Shown: in pieces, positions 32,346 through 47,029 of the stretch
Layout: every line of letters starts with the position of its first letter
Position numbering within the stretch: position 1 is the first letter of the stretch
Assembly (NCBI GenBank): GCA_002099625.1
Contig: GCA_002099625.1_4857.1
From: Escherichia coli
GTDB taxonomy: Bacteria > Pseudomonadota > Gammaproteobacteria > Enterobacterales > Enterobacteriaceae
Length of the DNA stretch: 64,000 nt
Direction: 5' to 3' (one strand)
The notes under the pieces: generated by a model
Database searches by the model: none
What the model was told of the DNA's origin: nothing
What the model saw: the letters and a program-made list of their open reading frames with translations, nothing else
Program-made: the position numbers and the translations under genes

Positions 32346-32825
32346 TCATTGCACAAGGCAACTACTTTTGTGCCGTTCGTAGGCATGATTAAAAGACTCT
32401 CTGTCTTCGCGATAGCTGCGAATGAGAGACTTAATCTGTCGTGACAAATCACGACTAATGTCCTGAGGGCTACGAGAACCAGGGTCGAGATATATCCCGG
32501 AGGGTATATCATGAAGAGTGGGGCGAATAAACTCTTCACAAAGCGGTGCGGCCATCGGGGTGCGCCACCCCTTAGCTTCTGCGTAATTGTTCAACGACTT
32601 AGCGTACAGATAAACGTAATAAGCATAAGCGTTCACATCCGCAACAAACATTTTCCCTGCCAGCTTTTTCGCCTCAGGACTGTTCCCACCAGCATAAACT
32701 GGTGGGTGTTCTAAAGGACGAAAAGGCCAATCTCCGGTTGAGGAGTAATCTGGGTCTACGTGACGGATGGCTCCAGGGCATCCTGTCAACAATAGCACCA
32801 GTATCGCCACCAAAAATAACTTCAT
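32346..32825 (-). CDS. Lipoprotein (159 aa); outer-membrane spanin candidate
   Basis: Signal peptide with lipobox LLTG-C (MKLFLVAILVLLLTGC); directly downstream of a membrane protein with coiled-coil character. Confidence 0.5.
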   Translation of the reverse strand: MKLFLVAILVLLLTGCPGAIRHVDPDYSSTGDWPFRPLEHPPVYAGGNSPEAKKLAGKMFVADVNAYAYYVYLYAKSLNNYAEAKGWRTPMAAPLCEEFIRPTLHDIPSGIYLDPGSRSPQDISRDLSRQIKSLIRSYREDRESFNHAYERHKSSCLVQ

Positions 32826-32834
32826 GTATGCTCC

Positions 32835-33344
32835 TCATGGATTATTAAGCGTACTGATAATCTCCTGTCGGAAATCATTTGCCTCCTGCGACCCTACCGG
32901 GCGAGAAGCGGCCTGGTATTTCTTGGCAGGTGGGCTAGACGGATTTAACGGTGCCGGCGGTGTTACCGGCTTGAGTTCTACAGGCGGAACCGCGGCCTCA
33001 GTGCCTGTTCCTGTTGGAGATTTGGTACCATCATATGGCGGTCGAGAACCCAGGCACGTGAAGAGACGATCGTACAACTTATTGTTCTCCACTTCGCCAT
33101 GATCGGACTTCTCTTTTAGCTCCTTATAGGATATCTCCAGATACTGAGTACGCGATTGAACGCTAACCAGTGTGTGGTATTGAACAATGTAGGCGTATGA
33201 GACAAATGCAGAGAACGCGATCAGTGCCACTATCACTAGTGTCACTATTTTCCCGGCTCGTGTTACTTTCTCCCCCTCGCCCGGTTTAAATGCTTCCCAC
33301 AGCATTTGTAAGAATGGAAGCAGTTTGAAAACTGATGCTATCAT
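32835..33344 (-). CDS. Membrane protein with predicted coiled-coil and Pro-rich C-terminus; inner-membrane spanin candidate
   Basis: One TM helix (IVTLVIVALIAFSAFVSYAYIV), then a heptad-like segment and a proline-rich tail; 9-nt gap to the lipoprotein gene. Confidence 0.4.
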   Translation of the reverse strand: MIASVFKLLPFLQMLWEAFKPGEGEKVTRAGKIVTLVIVALIAFSAFVSYAYIVQYHTLVSVQSRTQYLEISYKELKEKSDHGEVENNKLYDRLFTCLGSRPPYDGTKSPTGTGTEAAVPPVELKPVTPPAPLNPSSPPAKKYQAASRPVGSQEANDFRQEIISTLNNP

Positions 33345-33368
33345 GCTCACCTCGGAGAGTTTTTAATT

Positions 33369-36952: not shown

Positions 36953-37546
36953 TTACGCTTCGGCCTCAAAGAACGGCTGGTTCGGTACCACTGCATATTC
37001 GAGCACGAAAAGATGTTCTGGGGCATCTTCTGCTCGCCACAGTTTGTGGCACGTTGCCAGTTTTTCCAGGATGGTCAACCAGCTGAGCTGGCAGAAAGCA
37101 CGATCGCCGAAGAACAGTTTCTGCAGTGCAATCGACACATCCATATACGCCTGTTTGAAGTCGAGTTCTTTATCGTAACCCGCCGACTGTCGCCACGTCA
37201 GCACGAAGCCTGCTTCGGTTTCGTTAATTGCTGGACGTAAACCACAAATCCACATCAGCGCCAGATTAACGTTCCAGTCGAATTCGATACCTTCGTCTTC
37301 GTCATCACCAAACGCCGCGTTTAACGCGTCGTAGAAACCGTGGTTCTCTGCGAACCATTCGCCGTACTCAACGTAGACAGGTGCTTCGACAGCTTCCCCA
37401 TCGGCTTCACCGATAGGACGCTCAACGTAGTTCGGATTGGTTTGAACGTGTTCCGCACCCGCGCGAATCAGTTCGTAAACGTCTTTGGCGGTGATTTGTG
37501 CGGCTGTTTTAAGACCTGGATACCAGGGGCGTGTTACGAGTGTCAA
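36953..37546 (-). CDS. Hypothetical protein (197 aa)
   Basis: ORF; 4-nt overlap with the upstream SLT gene. Confidence 0.5.
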   Translation of the reverse strand: MTLVTRPWYPGLKTAAQITAKDVYELIRAGAEHVQTNPNYVERPIGEADGEAVEAPVYVEYGEWFAENHGFYDALNAAFGDDEDEGIEFDWNVNLALMWICGLRPAINETEAGFVLTWRQSAGYDKELDFKQAYMDVSIALQKLFFGDRAFCQLSWLTILEKLATCHKLWRAEDAPEHLFVLEYAVVPNQPFFEAEA

Positions 37547-38265
37547 AGCAATGCTCCTTTCATGATAGTGTTATTTGCCAGTAATGTACCGGCCGCAGGT
37601 GATATTTTGGTGTACAGCGTATCCCAGATTTTCTGAAGTTCGGCGACGCGTTGGTCGTGGTCTTCCTTCGCAAAAGCAAGCTGACGTGTTTCAGCTTTCG
37701 GTGGTGTCATTTTCGCACCGTAGAATGCTGCGTCTTTTCGGTAGCTGGCCATCCAGCGTTTCCCGACCGGTGATTTCTTTTTAATCATCGCAACAGCAGC
37801 ACCCTCACCGAAGCGGTAGCCTAAAGCGATTTCGGCTGTGCTCGGCTTGCGTTTGAGTTGTTTTGTCAGATGATCCTCGATGTGTTTCATGTAAACGGCA
37901 GCAAGCTGTACAGCATACTTCGGTTTATTAAGGTCCGCATTCTTTGGGATGTTAAGTTGTTTCCCATACAGACGTATCATGGAGCGTTTAGTGCCTGTCG
38001 TCATTTGGACAACACTACTAGCACTGCTCGATTTATTCTTACCCACGTTTTTATTAAAACGGGATTCACGATAAATGGTGGTCGCGAGCATCCCGGCATG
38101 TACGCCTTGTTTTCGAGATGCGGTGACGATGAGAGGTTTAATCTCATTGAACTGGTCCTGGATAAGGACGAATTCTTTTTGGTGTTTGTTACTGGTGGTC
38201 TGGTAAGAAGCGTTGCTGTTGAACGTAGTCATTGCTACCAGAAGAAATAAAATGGTGCGAAACAT
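37543..38265 (-). CDS. Secreted SLT-domain lytic transglycosylase (240 aa); endolysin candidate
   Basis: N-terminal signal peptide (MFRTILFLLVAMTTFNSNA) and SLT motifs TIYRESRFN ... VVQMTTGT. Confidence 0.6.
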   Translation of the reverse strand: MFRTILFLLVAMTTFNSNASYQTTSNKHQKEFVLIQDQFNEIKPLIVTASRKQGVHAGMLATTIYRESRFNKNVGKNKSSSASSVVQMTTGTKRSMIRLYGKQLNIPKNADLNKPKYAVQLAAVYMKHIEDHLTKQLKRKPSTAEIALGYRFGEGAAVAMIKKKSPVGKRWMASYRKDAAFYGAKMTPPKAETRQLAFAKEDHDQRVAELQKIWDTLYTKISPAAGTLLANNTIMKGALL

Positions 38266-39064: not shown

Positions 39065-39487
39065 TTAGCTATTCCTTTTCACCCAGGCTTGTACCGCTGA
39101 CTCGAAACCTTCGTGTTCGATACCGAGTCGTTTCATTGCCAACATAGTGTTGAGGCTATTCGTAATTTCTTCACGGTAGCGATGGTCGTCCATCTTACGC
39201 CAACACTTCTCCGGGTCAACACCTAGGCGTTGGAGTAGATACGCCTCACGCACCATACCAGGCCGCCAGAACTTAGGACGGGTAATCGCAATTTCAATCA
39301 TCGGCGTCATGTCCAATGTGTGCGCGAGAATACTAACCGGCGTTTCCCCAACTTTATCACGTAGCGCTAAACGTAACCACCACTGAACATTTGCTTTGGT
39401 TTCAGGTAACAGGTCGTAGAATAAGGCTGTTTCTTCTTCTGATAAATGATCGTATAGTGATTTTGTTTCGCGAATAGCGGTAACCAT
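39065..39487 (-). CDS. Hypothetical protein (140 aa)
   Basis: ORF in array. Confidence 0.5.
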   Translation of the reverse strand: MVTAIRETKSLYDHLSEEETALFYDLLPETKANVQWWLRLALRDKVGETPVSILAHTLDMTPMIEIAITRPKFWRPGMVREAYLLQRLGVDPEKCWRKMDDHRYREEITNSLNTMLAMKRLGIEHEGFESAVQAWVKRNS

Positions 39488-39498
39488 TTTAATGCTCC

Positions 39499-39762
39499 TT
39501 AGGGTAAAGTTGCCTCCCAGTCGTGGTGGTGAGGCTCAGGCAGCGTACCAAGCGCTGCTTTAATACACGTACTCAGCGGAGTATCATCGAACGCAACACG
39601 CCCGATAGTACCCACGTTGATGTGTTTAGGATTTACGGGTAAGAACTCCTTCACCCGCTCGTACTCAGCCCAACAGACATCGGTGTTTAAAGCTGAAAAC
39701 CCAGGACGGTGAAACATAAATAGCACTCCTCGCGTAAAAATACCCCACTCATAGTGAGGCAT
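39499..39762 (-). CDS. Hypothetical protein (87 aa)
   Basis: ORF in array. Confidence 0.4.
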   Translation of the reverse strand: MPHYEWGIFTRGVLFMFHRPGFSALNTDVCWAEYERVKEFLPVNPKHINVGTIGRVAFDDTPLSTCIKAALGTLPEPHHHDWEATLP

Positions 39763-40303: not shown

Positions 40304-40422
40304 CTGCGATGAAAGCGAGTAACGAAGAATTGCGTTTGTGTTTTCTTAAGTTTACCGGTAAAGCTTAGCGGTGTATACCGCTGCAGGTAAAGACCAGTTC
40401 TCTATCGGAACCGTGTCTTTAA

Positions 40423-40701
40423 TCAGCAACGTCGTTGAAAACGTCGCGATGCTGAGGTAACCTTCCGTCGCCACATTCGCTCATGGCGCTTCTGATTACC
40501 ACGCCAGTCTTCCCCGACTGTGCGTGAAACTGCAAAATCGTCCGGCCCGCAGACTTCCGCGATGTCTGCTAGAAGGTTCTTTGAAGACCCTATAGCCATC
40601 CCCACGCTCGAAAGAACGATACGCCGGGTTGGCTCGGCCGCCCCTGAACCCACGACCACGGGATCAGAGACTGTTTCACTGTCACATGATACTTCTCCCA
40701 C
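40423..40701 (-). CDS. Hypothetical protein (92 aa)
   Basis: ORF with GTG start and GGAGGG RBS, downstream of the micro-gene string. Confidence 0.35.
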   Translation of the reverse strand: MGEVSCDSETVSDPVVVGSGAAEPTRRIVLSSVGMAIGSSKNLLADIAEVCGPDDFAVSRTVGEDWRGNQKRHERMWRRKVTSASRRFQRRC

Positions 40702-40719: not shown

Positions 40720-40827
40720 TTAAAACCAACCTTGCGTCAATGCAAGGATTGCGCCTAGGGCGTATGCGCCTGCTCCTAGTACCAGGCTACAGATGATACA
40801 CCCAACCCACTTCACTAAAATAACCAT
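40720..40827 (-). CDS. Micro-protein P5 (35 aa), single TM helix
   Basis: MVILVKWVGCIICSLVLGAGAYALGAILALTQGWF; its ATG overlaps the 3-prime end of P4. Confidence 0.4.
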   Translation of the reverse strand: MVILVKWVGCIICSLVLGAGAYALGAILALTQGWF

Positions 40828-40946
40828 GATGCCAGAAATGCTCCGATTGCACAGATGATAATCGTAATGCCAAGGTCTGTCCAGGTGGTACCATCATACG
40901 CACCTGTTGCAATCATGGCTGCGTTGACACTATTCACGACTGTCAT
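40815..40946 (-). CDS. Micro-protein P4 (43 aa), single TM helix
   Basis: MTVVNSVNAAMIATGAYDGTTWTDLGITIIICAIGAFLASWLF; its start overlaps the P3 stop region. Confidence 0.4.
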   Translation of the reverse strand: MTVVNSVNAAMIATGAYDGTTWTDLGITIIICAIGAFLASWLF

Positions 40947-41133
40947 AAGCCGGGTCCCTTAAACGCGGGGGCTTGCTCCACAGATTACCGAAGTAAACCC
41001 CTTCTAAGAACACCAAAACAACTAAGCCCCAGAAGGCAGGCGTGGCACGAGACAAGAAAATGCCCATCAGCACTACAGTGTGCATTACCACAACTGCCCA
41101 AAACTTTAAACGACCCGGTTTACGTGTTGCCAT
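40930..41133 (-). CDS. Small membrane protein P3 (about 67 aa), two hydrophobic segments
   Basis: MATRKPGRLKFWAVVVMHTVVLMGIFL...GLVVLVFLEGVYFG; start re-picked at the first ATG, overlapping the P2 3-prime end. Confidence 0.4.
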   Translation of the reverse strand: MATRKPGRLKFWAVVVMHTVVLMGIFLSRATPAFWGLVVLVFLEGVYFGNLWSKPPRLRDPAYDSRE

Positions 41134-41224
41134 GGAATGCCCATCCTTTCGTGCGGATAATCCAACCCCAGGCACCACGAATCAACCACAGTGCGATACC
41201 GGTTAGTACGATACCTTCAATCAT
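41120..41224 (-). CDS. Micro-protein P2 (34 aa), single TM helix
   Basis: MIEGIVLTGIALWLIRGAWGWIIRTKGWAFHGNT; its ATG overlaps the P1 stop as ATGA. Confidence 0.4.
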   Translation of the reverse strand: MIEGIVLTGIALWLIRGAWGWIIRTKGWAFHGNT

Positions 41225-41412
41225 GTCCGTTCCCCTATATCTCGCCACTCACAACGCGTGTCAAAAAGACGTTCTTTAAGAGCAGAGGCTAAATACACAA
41301 CCGCAGCGATAACCACCACGGTTGCACAAAAGGAGAGGTACAGCACCATCACAACAAACTGAAGGAACTGAAAACCCCACCAAGCCCATAAGCGCCAACC
41401 TTTATGATGCAT
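41221..41412 (-). CDS. Small membrane protein P1 (63 aa)
   Basis: Hydrophobic core FVVMVLYLSFCATVVVIAAVVYLASAL; start overlaps the stop region of the SbcC-like gene. Confidence 0.45.
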   Translation of the reverse strand: MHHKGWRLWAWWGFQFLQFVVMVLYLSFCATVVVIAAVVYLASALKERLFDTRCEWRDIGERT

Positions 41413-43912
41413 ATTTGATTATTACCCCTTCGTTATACACCGGTGGAAGCGTCACACCTTCTGGTTCTACGACACAGTAGGTGGCTTCGTTAAGTTTAGA
41501 ATGAACTTCCGCTTCATGCGAAACGACCAGCAATTGAGAAAACTCTCCCGACAACGCCAACGATTTAATGAAGTTAACTAATCGGTTTTTGTGTTCTTCA
41601 TCCATGCCTTCAGATGGTTCATCCAATAACAAAGGATAGTTTTGTAAACCAAGTGCTTTATACGCCGTTAAACGAAACATCATGTTGAAAATAATGCGCT
41701 GTGCTTTTGAACCTTTCTTCACATCCGGCACCAGTTCTTCATGGTCTTTTAATCGCACTGGGAATGTATAATCCAAATCCCCGTCGGTTAAATCGCATGG
41801 AATAACCTGCATCGGATATGCCCACACCATCTCAATATACCGATTCATTAAATCCATGATGCGTGTAATCGCAGAATAGAAGTAACGTCTCAGTAAACCT
41901 TTTTCAGGAGAGACCGCGTTAATAATCAATCTGGCGTGGTGATGCTCTTTAAGCAATTCAGCTTGCTCTTTCTCCAGTTCCGCTAAGCGGGCAATAGCGC
42001 CTTCCATTTGTCGAAAACGTTCGCGCGCCGAGGTGTATGCATCTAACTTCGCTTCACGCCGGTTTAATAACTCGCGGACCACGACATTATTAACGGAAAT
42101 GTTCATTTCCGATATTAGATGCTCGTAACCTTTTTGGAAGCGTTCAATTGCATCCTTGGTTTGTTGCAACTGAGCAGTCTCACGTTCCAACTCACTGGCT
42201 TGTTTACGGTATTCTATTAACCGCCGATTAGCCCCATCCAGCTGTGACCGTACGTGTTCGATTTTCTGACTTAATGCGCCGTCGACGTTACCGACCGCAG
42301 CAACCGCTTCCTGCCACTCTCTTTCTGCTGTTGCAAGTTTTGCCGACTGACGTAGGTACATCATAGCCGATTCCATTTCTTCGGTAAAGGCACGTGCAAT
42401 AGCACCATAACGATCACGTGACGTAGTGAAGATATCCAACTCTTGCAGTTTGCGGAAGAACAAACCCACAACAGGATGATTGGAGTAAGACATGACGATT
42501 TCTCGAATCGTTCGTAAACTGCGAACGTCTTCTTCAATCTCTTTGCGGTCACGCAGAAGACTTTCCATTCCGACTTTCAGCTGTTTCTTCCAACCCTCGT
42601 TATCGTTGATCGCATTCTCAATTTCAGGTAGCGACTTGCGAATACCTGGACGGAATCGGTGGTTACATTGGGGGCAATCGACTTCTGCGGTTTCTAAGAA
42701 GTGCTGACGGTCGTGGTACAAACCGTGTAACACATTCTCGCAGCGCTGCAGTTTTTCAGATAGGTCTGCGGAGGTTAAATCCATACCCTGTAAACGTTTC
42801 TCTAACGCGCCCAGACGCTCTGTTGTCTTTAATTGGTCCAGATGCATAGACAACGGCAAGTTCCAGTTACAGGCGTCGTTTAGTGTGCTCTGAATGCTAT
42901 CCACGTCGATGCGGGTACCTTCAAACAGTTCAGGGAACAACCAATTTTGCTGGAATGTCGAAAGTTCCTGTTTTAAGCTGTCGATGGTTTGCTTTAGGCC
43001 GGCGTGATTACGCATCAGGTACGATTGTCGCGATTCCTCGTCCAGTAGCTGGGACAACTCTTTGTTGTACATACTGCATTCGGTCTCGGCTGAAGCTGCT
43101 TGTTCGCGCCATGCCACTACACGACTTTGAAACTCGTTAATCAGCTCGTCGGAAGGCAGTACACCGTACCGTTCCATGATAAGCTTTACAGCTGGCTGTA
43201 ATGACACAATACGTTTTCGGATACTATCAACCGAAACGGCGTTGTCTAGGCCAGGTCTCGCTTCAATTGTGCGGTTTAATTCCTGAAGCTCAGCATCGAG
43301 TTCTTTCAAACGAACTTCTAAACGTGCACGATCTTCTTCATCATCAACGACGCGCATTTTTGCTTCGCCGATTTTTCGTCCGGTGTGTTCGATGGCCCCG
43401 CTTAAACTGGAAGCGAGTTTACGCAAACGTCGATAGCAGCCAACGACATACGTTAAATCCGATTCTGACATTAACGTAAACCATTTGCGACGAACTTCGG
43501 TAGTGGCGTCAGTTAATAAGGTCTCGCCATTAATTAACTCTTTGATTTCTTTGGTGATTCCGGTTAACTGTTCCACCATGGAGTTGTAAACTTTGGCGTT
43601 TACCGAGTCCACAATAGGGACGCCTTTGGTGATATTGAAAATACTACAAGACAAAGAAGACCCACGTCGCAGGACTTCAAACTTAAGACGGTCGTCCCCG
43701 ACTAACGCGTAGTTAGTGTAAGAACCACCTTCACGGAATTCAGATTTTGCTGGAGCTAAGGGGAGAAAAACAGACAGGAGGCTTGTTTTACCGCAACCAT
43801 TGCCACCGAGGATGATGGTAACGGTTGACTTAAGGGTGAAATCAAACGTTTCGATTTCGTGTAACCCCATACCGGTAAATCCTTTCAAAATGATACGTTC
43901 GACCTTGAGCAT
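41402..43912 (-). CDS. SbcC/Rad50-like SMC-family ATPase (836 aa)
   Basis: N-terminal Walker A GGNGCGKTS, long predicted coiled coils, central CPQC zinc-hook-like motif, C-terminal Walker B / D-loop LLLDEPSEGMDEE and H-loop VVSHEAE. Confidence 0.8.
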   Translation of the reverse strand: MLKVERIILKGFTGMGLHEIETFDFTLKSTVTIILGGNGCGKTSLLSVFLPLAPAKSEFREGGSYTNYALVGDDRLKFEVLRRGSSLSCSIFNITKGVPIVDSVNAKVYNSMVEQLTGITKEIKELINGETLLTDATTEVRRKWFTLMSESDLTYVVGCYRRLRKLASSLSGAIEHTGRKIGEAKMRVVDDEEDRARLEVRLKELDAELQELNRTIEARPGLDNAVSVDSIRKRIVSLQPAVKLIMERYGVLPSDELINEFQSRVVAWREQAASAETECSMYNKELSQLLDEESRQSYLMRNHAGLKQTIDSLKQELSTFQQNWLFPELFEGTRIDVDSIQSTLNDACNWNLPLSMHLDQLKTTERLGALEKRLQGMDLTSADLSEKLQRCENVLHGLYHDRQHFLETAEVDCPQCNHRFRPGIRKSLPEIENAINDNEGWKKQLKVGMESLLRDRKEIEEDVRSLRTIREIVMSYSNHPVVGLFFRKLQELDIFTTSRDRYGAIARAFTEEMESAMMYLRQSAKLATAEREWQEAVAAVGNVDGALSQKIEHVRSQLDGANRRLIEYRKQASELERETAQLQQTKDAIERFQKGYEHLISEMNISVNNVVVRELLNRREAKLDAYTSARERFRQMEGAIARLAELEKEQAELLKEHHHARLIINAVSPEKGLLRRYFYSAITRIMDLMNRYIEMVWAYPMQVIPCDLTDGDLDYTFPVRLKDHEELVPDVKKGSKAQRIIFNMMFRLTAYKALGLQNYPLLLDEPSEGMDEEHKNRLVNFIKSLALSGEFSQLLVVSHEAEVHSKLNEATYCVVEPEGVTLPPVYNEGVIIKYAS

Positions 43913-43963: not shown

Positions 43964-43997
43964 GTAAAAAAGAAGAAATGGAACCCCGAAGGGTTCC
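43964..43997 (-). terminator. Intrinsic terminator (minus strand)
   Basis: Stem GGAACCC / GGGTTCC with CGAA loop; T-run on the minus strand. Confidence 0.5.
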
Positions 43998-44008
43998 AGA
44001 GAGGAGAG

Positions 44009-44650: not shown

Positions 44651-44681
44651 AACAAAAAAAGAAGGTAGCCTACGGGCTACC
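44651..44681 (-). terminator. Intrinsic terminator (minus strand)
   Basis: Stem GGTAGCC / GGCTACC with TACG loop; 7-T run on the minus strand. Confidence 0.5.
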
Positions 44682-44689
44682 TCTCGTAT

Positions 44690-45319: not shown

Positions 45320-45703
45320 TTACTGGTCGAGCGCTACTGAACCACGCACCACCCCTTGCTGTTCAATAACCAGGAGGCGTTGTTTGGTTTTCGTATTGTA
45401 AGCGAGCGACGCGCGAAGCGTCGGGTCGCACGTTATTGTCTCTACTGGCACAATCTCTTGTGCCTTTGAGTTCAACAGAAAGTAGTAACCTGCCGGACAA
45501 GTTTCCTCGCCCTTTGCGTGGACTAGGATGTACTCGTCGTGCCGGCTGACTTCTTCACATCTACCATCGTCACCAGTACAGACTTCGAACGAAGGCGGAT
45601 TGTACTGATACGGTGTGCCTGGTAGTAAATCTTCTACGCTGGTTGTAGCTGAAGCAGAAGCGGTAAAGAACACCGCCACGATAATACCCATAAATCCACG
45701 CAT
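45320..45703 (-). CDS. Secreted Cys-containing small protein (127 aa)
   Basis: N-terminal signal peptide MRGFMGIIVAVFFTASASA; several Cys residues. Confidence 0.5.
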   Translation of the reverse strand: MRGFMGIIVAVFFTASASATTSVEDLLPGTPYQYNPPSFEVCTGDDGRCEEVSRHDEYILVHAKGEETCPAGYYFLLNSKAQEIVPVETITCDPTLRASLAYNTKTKQRLLVIEQQGVVRGSVALDQ

Positions 45704-45716
45704 GTTGTTTCCTTAC

Positions 45717-46127
45717 TTAAAAGTCGAGTTTATTGATACCTACGTTTTTCTTAATCGTAGGGTCGTACATGATAACCGTCAGGGCATTATCACCTGGGTC
45801 GCGAGTAAACTCAGCAACGGCTTCACCACTGCAGGCTTGGTTATCATTGTAGTTCATGGATTCGGCTTGCCCGGTTGCCATGTTAATAACCCCGTATTCA
45901 GGGTCGCCACATGCGACACCGCCCATCGTTTTCACTAACAGGTAACGGTTGTTATCGGACATCGCAACGATCTGGCAGCTACCGCCTTGTACGTCAGAGT
46001 TCTGGCACCAGAACGGCCCGCCGTATTCGTGATCGTTAACAACTTTTGGTAACTCGATACTTCCAGCGCGAGCGAAGAAACTAATGGCCAGAGTAGCAAG
46101 TAAAACTGGTAATAAAAAATGTTTCAT
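45717..46127 (-). CDS. Secreted Cys-containing small protein (136 aa), paralog of 46150..46641
   Basis: Signal peptide MKHFLLPVLLATLAISFFARA; shares PFWC...C...V...CG with the next gene. Confidence 0.55.
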   Translation of the reverse strand: MKHFLLPVLLATLAISFFARAGSIELPKVVNDHEYGGPFWCQNSDVQGGSCQIVAMSDNNRYLLVKTMGGVACGDPEYGVINMATGQAESMNYNDNQACSGEAVAEFTRDPGDNALTVIMYDPTIKKNVGINKLDF

Positions 46128-46149
46128 AATAGCACCTCAATTTTTTGAG

Positions 46150-46641
46150 TTATTCTGAATAGTCGATTGTTTTGATGGTTTCCATACCGTAGTACATAGC
46201 GATGGAGGCCAGAGTTTTGGTATCCGGTCGCTGTACAAAACCGGCCCTGAAATCTTTGCTGCAAATTTTCTCCACTGATAGTTCATCACGATTAGGGATA
46301 AGCCATAACGCGTCACCATTGTGACGGTCGACTGCACCCCACCAACCACCTGGGCAATCTTTATCGCCAGGACGGTGTACGATAGCGACACGACCGTTGA
46401 AGGATATGTCAACTACACGACACTGTTTCTTAAGCAGCTTACGCGCATTGCACCAGAACGGCTTATCATTAAGATTGATGGTGCGGGTATATGCTGGAAT
46501 GCTGCCGTTAATACTGCCCTGGAACCCGCTGAATTCGTCAGCGTGTGCCTTAGAAATCCGTAGCCCAACAACAACTGCCATCAACAGCACAGTAAAAAGC
46601 ACCACTTTGGCCAAGTGGCGATTAACGTTATTGCATTTCAT
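46150..46641 (-). CDS. Secreted Cys-containing small protein (about 163 aa)
   Basis: Start re-picked at MKCNN; signal/anchor segment VVLFTVLLMAVVVGL; PFWCNA...C...CPGGWWG. Confidence 0.5.
   Translation of the reverse strand: MKCNNVNRHLAKVVLFTVLLMAVVVGLRISKAHADEFSGFQGSINGSIPAYTRTINLNDKPFWCNARKLLKKQCRVVDISFNGRVAIVHRPGDKDCPGGWWGAVDRHNGDALWLIPNRDELSVEKICSKDFRAGFVQRPDTKTLASIAMYYGMETIKTIDYSE
46159..46168 (-). promoter_or_regulatory. Promoter-like motif AATCGACTAT (minus-strand sense)
   Basis: 32-41 nt upstream of the ATG of secreted-protein gene 45717..46127. Confidence 0.4.
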
Positions 46642-47029
46642 TTTTAATATCTCCACGATTAAGGGTGATGCGACCGACGAGCACATCGTTGTGATAAAAG
46701 CTCACAGCAACCATATTCGGTAATTCCAGTGGTGACACACTGACCGAGGTGACTTTTGGTTGATTGCACGATATGTCAATCAACCGCTGATACATTTTCA
46801 ATTTCTTATCAGCGATAACCAGCCCTGTGCAGTTCTTACCGTCCGTCAGTCTGTAGATTTGTAACTGTTCGACCTCACGCATCAGTTCTGGTTTTTCATT
46901 CGGCGCAATGCCATAATCCGAATCAGCTGATGTGTATTCAGTCACGTCTGGCTTATCGAAAGCATAAGTTGCTGCAATACCACATGCGGCCAGAACTACT
47001 ACTGCTTGTAAGAACTTCTTGATAGTCAT
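46628..47029 (-). CDS. Secreted small protein (133 aa)
   Basis: Signal peptide MTIKKFLQAVVVLAACGIAATYA; AATCGACTATA motif 11-20 nt upstream of the ATG. Confidence 0.5.
   Translation of the reverse strand: MTIKKFLQAVVVLAACGIAATYAFDKPDVTEYTSADSDYGIAPNEKPELMREVEQLQIYRLTDGKNCTGLVIADKKLKMYQRLIDISCNQPKVTSVSVSPLELPNMVAVSFYHNDVLVGRITLNRGDIKNEMQ

Follow-up and report, generated by a model that had tools for sequence, protein, structure and literature searches.

An SbcC gene followed by five overlapping micro-genes

We analysed a stretch of 64,000 nucleotides (nt), called the window throughout, from contig GCA_002099625.1_4857.1 of an assembly filed under Escherichia coli (GCA_002099625.1). On the minus strand, at positions 40,720 to 43,912, it carries a gene for an 836-amino acid (aa) ATPase of the SbcC/Rad50 type, which is followed by five very small open reading frames (ORFs), referred to here as m1 to m5 (Table 1). 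The positions that an earlier note on this DNA had given for the ATPase and the five micro-ORFs were confirmed by the ORF listing, by the sequence itself and by re-translation. Over 4.4 kb around the locus, the window shares 91–93% nt identity with Salmonella phage SPN3US and with about 20 further genomes of Seoulvirus, but 73% with SPAsTU and STsAS, and the order of the genes is collinear with SPN3US. By sequence, the source of the window is a SPN3US-like Seoulvirus, that is, a phiKZ-like nucleus-forming jumbo phage. The exact 836-aa sequence is also encoded on contigs of 242–244 kb in public assemblies.

Table 1. Features of the SbcC locus and of the surrounding region. Coordinates are positions in the window; E, E-value of the profile match; TM, transmembrane; SAR, signal-arrest-release.
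Feature	Coordinates	Strand	Remarks
SbcC/Rad50-type ATP-binding cassette (ABC) ATPase, 836 aa	41402..43912	-	Ortholog of SPN3US gp186 and phiKZ gp165
Walker A / P-loop, GGNGCGKTS, residues 36-44	43781..43807	-	Alignment, re-translation
Zinc-hook motif, CPQC, residues 413-416 (protein midpoint)	42665..42676	-	Alignment
Walker B and D-loop, LLLDEPSEGMD, residues 761-771	41600..41632	-	Alignment, re-translation
H-loop, LVVSHEAE, residues 795-802	41507..41530	-	Alignment, re-translation
m1, 63 aa (SPN3US gp187)	41221..41412	-	PHROG 16515, E 6e-30; 11-nt overlap with the 3' end of SbcC
m2, 34 aa, ATG start	41120..41224	-	PHROG 13448, E 1e-8; 4-nt (ATGA) overlap with m1
m3, 67 aa	40930..41133	-	PHROG 18173, E 1e-38; 14-nt overlap with m2
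m4, 43 aa	40815..40946	-	PHROG 29196, E 5e-32; 17-nt overlap with m3
m5, 35 aa	40720..40827	-	No PHROG match; 13-nt overlap with m4
92-aa gene, GTG start, next in the unit	40423..40701	-	PHROG 15402, E 3e-12; 18 nt after m5; preceded by AGGAGGG
Terminator-like element (GC-rich hairpin plus T-run) separating the 208-aa gene from the start of the ATPase gene	43979..43998	-	8-bp stem with 5 GC pairs; tail TTTCTTCTTT
240-aa SLT-domain transglycosylase	37543..38265	-	Weakly hydrophobic N-terminal signal/SAR-like segment (MFRTILFLLVAMTTFNSNA)
159-aa lipobox (LLLTGC) protein and 171-aa protein with one N-terminal TM helix	32346..32825 and 32835..33350	-	171-aa gene first, then the 159-aa gene; PHROGs of unknown function
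Four tandem genes (127, 136, 178 and 133 aa)	45320..47029	-	Each with a signal-peptide-like hydrophobic N-terminal segment

The ATPase and its SbcD partner

The earlier note had recognised an SbcC/Rad50-like ATPase by its Walker A, CPQC and Walker B/H-loop motifs, and the additional comparisons agree with this assignment. The protein has the split ABC head of Rad50 and SbcC, with Walker A in the N-terminal part and the remaining motifs in the C-terminal part, and it contains a signature-like GSKAQRI. Walker A, the signature region, Walker B/D-loop and the H-loop align with ten jumbo-phage homologs as well as with T4 gp46. A CPxC motif at the midpoint is invariant in the jumbo-phage SbcC homologs aligned (10/10), and T4 gp46, which is about 280 residues shorter than the ATPase studied here, has CPTC at position 288 of 560. 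In profile searches, residues 1–835 matched PHROG 77, 'SbcC-like subunit', with an E-value of 3.9e-95, and the best PDB sequence matches were Rad50 ATPase heads. The Pfam SMC_N match reached 28.1 bits, under the cut-off of 40, and the top NCBIfam matches, to Rad50 and archaeal SMC-related models, were all under the curated cut-offs. The approximately 600 residues between the two halves of the head are poor in Gly and Pro, with a fraction of E/L/K/R/Q/A residues of 0.51–0.53 vs 0.36–0.40 in the heads; the composition of these arms is coiled-coil-like, and they gave weak matches to coiled-coil families and to SMC/Rad50 arm regions.

At the protein level, the ATPase is 97% identical to Seoulvirus proteins annotated as 'SMC domain', and it shares about 22% identity over its full length with phiKZ gp165 and other SbcC-like proteins of the Chimalliviridae, which have the same length, motifs and hook. 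The ratio of nonsynonymous to synonymous substitution rates (dN/dS), calculated here and below by the Nei-Gojobori method against SPAsTU (about 27% nt divergence, with synonymous sites near saturation), was 0.06. The SPN3US ortholog gp186 was found to be essential by amber mutation and was termed the SbcC subunit, a homolog of phiKZ ORF165 (Thomas et al, 2016; PMC5105663). In addition, phiKZ gp165 was a hit when essential phage proteins were screened for by antisense knock-down (PMC12571901). By sequence homology, then, the ATPase is a conventional SbcC of the Rad50 type, already published and essential.

Two side observations concern the same gene. First, the part encoding the putative coiled coil (window 41640..43440) shows 81–92% nt identity to SPN3US, compared with 97–99% for the ATPase heads and all flanking genes, and most of the changes in it are synonymous (210/248 at third codon positions); this segment looks like a recombined mosaic. 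Second, two of the matching phage records (H1, Proteus phage 7; H6, Salmonella phage MET_P1_082_240) have a feature called 'nuclease SbcCD subunit D' at the position of the match and no feature called SbcC or SMC, so that the ATPase gene of these two phages may have been given the wrong subunit name.

The earlier note had also stressed that no Mre11 gene adjoins the ATPase. This was found to be correct, as the 208-aa and 188-aa genes upstream had no Pfam match, phosphoesterases included, and fall in PHROGs of unknown function. Likewise, a tblastn search with the SPN3US SbcD protein, gp27, gave chance-level matches only within the 64-kb window. The absence of an SbcD homolog from the window is to be expected because its gene is so distant in SPN3US, where SPN3US_0027 (gp27) lies at 21.0–22.2 kb and SbcC at 168.9–171.4 kb of the genome, about 147 kb apart. 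Indeed, gp27 has been described as the SbcD subunit, and the genes for SbcC and SbcD as 'drastically separated' in SPN3US, phiKZ and related phages (PMC5105663). In our searches, gp27 matched PHROG 100, 'SbcD-like subunit' (E 8.5e-64), and gave weak NCBIfam matches to SbcD and Mre11 models; it was not recognised by the Pfam search. By eye, its sequence contains the phosphoesterase-like motifs DIH, GDLFD, SHD and GHDH.

An Mre11/SbcD homolog elsewhere in the genome had been named beforehand as the result that would speak against an unconventional Rad50, and such a homolog is found at a distance from SbcC in SPN3US and likewise across its relatives. By tblastn, 290 phage records contained an SbcD homolog and 300 an SbcC homolog, the two sets being distributed over genera in nearly the same way, and 23 records were at least 99% identical to gp27. 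The relatives of this phage therefore carry the nuclease partner in the same genome, and since gp27 homologs are paired with SbcC across them, the ATPase can be regarded as a conventional SbcC. What the earlier note had implied, an orphan Rad50-like ATPase acting without an Mre11 nuclease in a novel function, draws on the lack of a phosphoesterase gene both next to the ATPase and anywhere in the window. However, every close relative has an SbcD gene at another place in its genome, gp27 clearly belongs to the SbcD family, and annotation and genetics in the literature concur (PMC5105663). For the close relatives the orphan reading is refuted by their separately encoded gp27, and we consider it very improbable for the ATPase described here. 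The apparent Rad50 without Mre11 thus dissolves into the known split SbcC/SbcD arrangement of phiKZ-like phages.

Sequence features and conservation of the micro-genes

The five micro-ORFs have the sizes and the overlapping starts that the earlier note had reported, with overlaps between 4 and 17 nt, and GGAG/AAGG-type motifs resembling Shine-Dalgarno sequences lie 6–13 nt before most of their starts, within the preceding coding sequence. The hydrophobic helices that had been predicted in each peptide are supported by hydropathy in 5/5 cases, all of them having at least one 19-residue window at a Kyte-Doolittle value of 1.7–2.6, and by the helical AlphaFold2 models of m1 and m3, for which family alignments were used as input. 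In m1, a hydrophobic stretch of about 38 residues lies between conserved tails (DW.R at the N end and ECEWR at the C end), and the model consists of one long helix (residues 3–61) with a predicted local distance difference test (pLDDT) score of 81. The m2 peptide has an N-terminal hydrophobic helix followed by a basic motif, IRTKGWAF, in an alignment of 12 members. The m3 peptide has a basic segment at its N-terminus, followed by two hydrophobic helices and by a charged tail at the C-terminus (PPRLRDPAYD; C-terminal tail PPRLRDPAYDSRE), and it is modelled as a helical hairpin of residues 8–27 and 32–52 (pLDDT 71). Finally, m4 has a polar N-terminal half and a C-terminal hydrophobic helix that extends to the last residue (...ASWLF), and m5 is nearly all hydrophobic, with a conserved C-terminus, ALTQGWF. 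We found no meaningful similarity of the five peptides to each other, and searches of Pfam, NCBIfam and PHROGs at permissive thresholds returned no named family for any of them. The 63-aa transmembrane protein downstream of SbcC, gp187, which corresponds to m1, had already been noted in SPN3US (PMC5105663).

In SPAsTU, all five micro-ORFs are kept in the same order and with overlapping starts, and all five are annotated. Their dN/dS values were 0.30 (m1), 0.10 (m2), 0.17 (m3), 0.08 (m4) and 0.43 (m5). The few differences from SPN3US are found mainly at third codon positions, and m1 to m4 each match a PHROG family of unknown function. As the frames are kept in SPAsTU at dN/dS values of 0.08–0.43, and subsets of them in relatives whose ATPase is about 50% identical, their conservation is beyond what chance would produce. 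Loss of the array in relatives had been proposed as a result that would speak against it; instead, all five members are present in SPAsTU and subsets in more distant relatives.

For m5, which lacks a PHROG family, the DNA encoding the C-terminal motif in the window could form a weak hairpin followed by a T-run. As an explanation of the conserved C-terminus, an RNA hairpin or terminator was rejected: the motif ALTQGWF recurs in Asesino, in Wellington and at two further loci (L013/L014), with variants in L021/L022, and hairpin and T-run are not conserved in relatives. Since the hairpin is not conserved and the motif codons vary synonymously, the constraint acts on the peptide.

The extent to which such genes escape annotation, as suggested by the earlier note, is apparent from public records, in which between one and five of them are called. 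Out of the five, SPN3US has three annotated (m1, m3 and m4), SEGD1 four and SPAsTU all five, and the public gene calls on contigs with the exact ATPase include 3/5 in L026 and 1/5 each in L027 and L028. This disagreement between gene callers, the very short length of the ORFs, and the missing PHROG family and potential 3' hairpin of m5 are what could be said for chance frames or a conserved untranslated RNA. We find this reading hardly credible, given dN/dS values below 0.5 at about 27% nt divergence, frames kept at about 50% ATPase identity, a peptide motif in m5 that outlasts its hairpin through synonymous changes, and Rfam and tRNA scans that revealed no relevant family and no tRNA in the region. 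On this comparative sequence evidence, the five micro-ORFs are real, conserved genes under purifying selection.

Distribution of the micro-genes downstream of SbcC

To define how far the array extends, we examined which genes follow SbcC in 4 annotated phages and in 10 loci from IMG/VR, with ATPases 43–63% identical to the one studied here; loci are cited by their number in our set. In Seoulvirus, SbcC is followed by m1 to m5 and then by the 92-aa protein, whereas the composition differs in the other groups. Asesino-like phages have m1, m2, m3 and m5, and the same four, with a divergent m1, were found in Machinavirus-like phages and in L021/L022. In a group of phages of about 225 kb (L015–L017, L023), m1, m2 and m4 are followed directly by an acetyltransferase gene, and L018 has m1 and m2 only. 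There are extra insertions in Wellington, and in CR5 an unrelated 113-aa two-helix protein takes the place after SbcC. Overlapping or abutting starts recur throughout the related loci.

Taken gene by gene, m2 is present in nearly every related locus examined and was not seen in L015 or CR5. Homologs of m4 were found in L015, L016, L017 and L023, and those of m5 in SPAsTU, Asesino, L013/L014, Wellington, L021/L022 and Parshik. No small membrane genes were found beside SbcC in phiKZ/KTN4, RAY, Aphrodite1 or Goslar. By profile search, the m1 family comprises 35 clusters and m3 26 clusters among 5.8 billion proteins, and m3 has 6 representatives among 1.84 billion. The named members and the long contigs (about 220–246 kb) of the m1 family all belong to this jumbo-phage clade, as do the named members of m3. 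Relatives outside the clade were not found for m1 or m3 among the 5.8 billion proteins, nor for m3 among the 1.84 billion representatives.

The chain of five had been called an unusual architecture. Overlapping, conserved hydrophobic genes do follow SbcC, but they are not a fixed unit, since the composition varies by genus and the array is absent beside SbcC in distant nucleus-forming phages. Judged by these sequence comparisons, the micro-genes are a clade-specific modular cassette behind SbcC, in which m3, m4 and m5 have been gained and lost, rather than a universal companion of the enzyme.

One of the insertions in Erwinia phage Wellington (L006 5679..6065), located between the m1-like and m2-like genes, encodes a soluble protein of 128 aa that contains HEAVH, an HExxH-like motif, and an additional hydrophobic ORF of 46 aa follows m2.

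Interpretation of the locus

The explanation that we favour, and hold to be somewhat more probable than its competitors taken together, is a single unit consisting of a conventional SbcC with a distant SbcD and of clade-specific coupled micro-genes for independently acting accessory membrane proteins. The region would be one transcription unit that starts after the terminator hairpin at 43979..43998, which likely marks its 5' boundary, and that has SbcC as its first gene. An AGAAGG ribosome-binding motif precedes the SbcC ATG, and after the SbcC start there is no comparable terminator until well beyond the cassette. Scanning for sigma-70 promoters gave sites no more frequent than chance. As in all phiKZ-like phages, the partner of SbcC would be an SbcD/Mre11 nuclease from a distant gene (about 147 kb away), and SbcCD would process DNA ends for recombination-dependent replication. 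The identity of SbcC within this explanation is established by homology and published genetics.

Because each micro-gene starts within the 3' end of the preceding gene, terminating ribosomes would re-initiate on the next one, and the peptides would be produced whenever SbcC is produced; we infer this translational coupling from the overlaps and the Shine-Dalgarno-like motifs. The products, hydrophobic proteins with a single helix or a hairpin, most likely insert into the host inner membrane, as their predicted helices suggest. Once there, they might alter the envelope of the host, for instance so as to block superinfection, to modulate membrane proteins of the host or to tune lysis. Such an accessory role of independently acting micro-proteins is our guess. 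We prefer it because the genes are modular, mutually unrelated and missing in distant relatives, and because many of the proteins encoded nearby are directed to the envelope (four with signal peptides upstream, an SLT transglycosylase downstream and a spanin-like pair beyond it). A fixed complex or an obligatory cofactor of SbcC is not favoured, since members are gained and lost, are dissimilar to each other and are absent beside SbcC in distant relatives.

Imm and Sp of the T-even phages are small early proteins of the inner membrane that block superinfection; the phage can dispense with them, they vary from one relative to another, and their expression precedes lysis. By analogy, we consider Imm/Sp-like behaviour the most likely one for the micro-proteins, although the five peptides are much smaller (34–67 aa) and the likeness is one of general description, not of sequence.

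Several points weigh against this explanation. Translation and membrane location of the peptides are deduced from their sequence. The hydrophobic stretch of m2 is short and interrupted by Arg/Lys, so that this peptide may lie on the membrane surface rather than span it. Furthermore, m1 stands directly after SbcC throughout the SPN3US-like clade, and this position could mean that the two are linked in function and not only by co-expression. Finally, the suggested accessory functions found no matches in Pfam, NCBIfam or the named PHROGs.

A serious competing reading, to which we give a minor share of the probability, is that the cassette controls lysis and that at least one peptide is the holin, pinholin or antiholin of the phage, the candidates being the two-helix m3 or the long-helix m1. 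It would depolarise the inner membrane and thereby release the signal/SAR-type SLT transglycosylase, and the spanin-like pair at 32.3–33.4 kb would complete lysis. Both m3 and m1 resemble class II holins and pinholins, such as S21 68 of phage 21, in being small proteins (60–70 aa) in which a hydrophobic core with predicted TM helices lies between a basic N-terminus and a charged C-tail. The fit in outline is that of m3 in particular, which has 67 aa and, between its basic and charged ends, two helices of about 20 residues each. The weakly hydrophobic signal/SAR-like N-terminus of the SLT protein and the TM-plus-lipobox pair are in line with such a module, and no holin has been reported for Seoulvirus phages in the literature that we searched. 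In contrast to a typical lysis cassette, the micro-genes are separated from the SLT gene by about 2.5 kb and six genes, and they are coupled to a replication/recombination gene, which would be expected to be expressed before the late lysis genes. Moreover, m3 is missing in the group of phages of about 225 kb and in L018, no holin family was matched in Pfam or PHROGs even at E 5–10, and no remote homolog of m3 was found among the 1.84 billion representatives.

Less likely still is a tethering function, in which m1, perhaps together with other peptides, would anchor SbcCD to the inner membrane in the way proposed for T4 gp47.1 with gp46/gp47. In T4, the Rad50-type ATPase likewise carries a CPxC hook at its midpoint, and within the gp46/gp47 cluster the start of gene 47 is overlapped by gene 47.1, which encodes a tiny hydrophobic protein (46 aa). 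Similarly, m1 is small (63 aa, below the 70 aa taken as the limit for such a protein) and has a predicted membrane helix, and its 11-nt overlap with SbcC takes in the stop codon. All SPN3US-like loci, CR5 included, have a gene for a small hydrophobic protein after SbcC, and the conserved charged tails of m1 could serve as a binding surface. The parallel with gp47.1 had been drawn for gp187 by Thomas et al (2016; PMC5105663). However, blastp-short gave no meaningful alignment between gp47.1 and any of m1 to m5, and SbcC has no flanking small membrane gene in phiKZ/KTN4, RAY, Goslar or Aphrodite1. The arrangements also differ, as in T4 the subunit genes are clustered and one micro-membrane gene lies upstream of gene 47, whereas here a distance of about 147 kb would separate the subunit genes, and SbcC is followed by five micro-genes. 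The T4 tether is itself a proposal and not a demonstrated mechanism. In nucleus-forming phages, DNA is replicated inside a protein shell without a membrane, and a membrane-bound SbcCD is hard to place in such a compartment.

More speculatively, and with little probability in our estimate, the micro-proteins could form an inner-membrane platform made by the phage, with m1 touching the SbcC head, which would dock SbcCD at a membrane, for example at the lipid vesicle that encloses the genome early in infection. Gene order and the unproven T4 gp47.1 precedent are the support for this idea. If it were true, the handling of DNA ends would be linked to a membrane stage of the life cycle.

Returning to accessory proteins encoded behind a conventional SbcC, part of this locus is already published, namely the SbcC ATPase, the separated SbcD and the transmembrane gp187. 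Thus, SPN3US resembles the window in its essential gp186, its separately encoded SbcD (gp27) and its m1 (gp187), and differs from it in that m2, m5 and the 92-aa gene are not annotated there. Our comparisons add that the five micro-ORFs and the 92-aa gene are real, under selection and inconsistently annotated, and that the cassette is modular and restricted to one clade. As these genes are missing or mis-annotated in references such as SPN3US, small membrane proteins of jumbo phages are under-counted by annotation pipelines. The membrane-acting proteins of nucleus-forming phages, holins included, are largely unidentified, and the cassette provides a defined set of candidates, which are testable in SPN3US because it has a genetic system. 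The micro-gene families are uncharacterised, and a functional surprise is therefore possible, but their sequences so far give no hint of one.

Neighbouring genes

Immediately downstream of m5, the 92-aa gene, which has a dN/dS of 0.42, encodes a non-hydrophobic protein in which the motif EDWRGNQ..RHER and a basic C-tail are found. It is conserved in SPAsTU, Asesino, Parshik (gp202), Wellington and L013/14/18/20/21/22, and it is unannotated in SPN3US. A 40-aa ORF in another frame (ACQ60_gp076; window 40352..40474, minus strand) is annotated in SPN3US instead, and this ORF is probably spurious.

Upstream of SbcC, strong terminator-like hairpins with T-runs at 44662..44683 and 43979..43998 (minus strand) bracket the 208-aa gene, which suggests that it forms a separate transcription unit with a single gene.

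Between the 87-aa and 140-aa genes, SPN3US and Parshik have an extra gene of about 170 aa (MTDIRVDIYGEIHT...), which is absent from the window and from SPAsTU (window about 39487..39500 compared with L001 2694..3212). Further downstream, the SLT-domain transglycosylase is a candidate secreted endolysin, and the genes at 32346..33350 resemble an i-spanin/o-spanin arrangement, with the TM-helix protein followed by the lipobox protein. Among the four tandem genes upstream, the second also matches the PHROG family of the third and vice versa, and these two are therefore probably paralogs.

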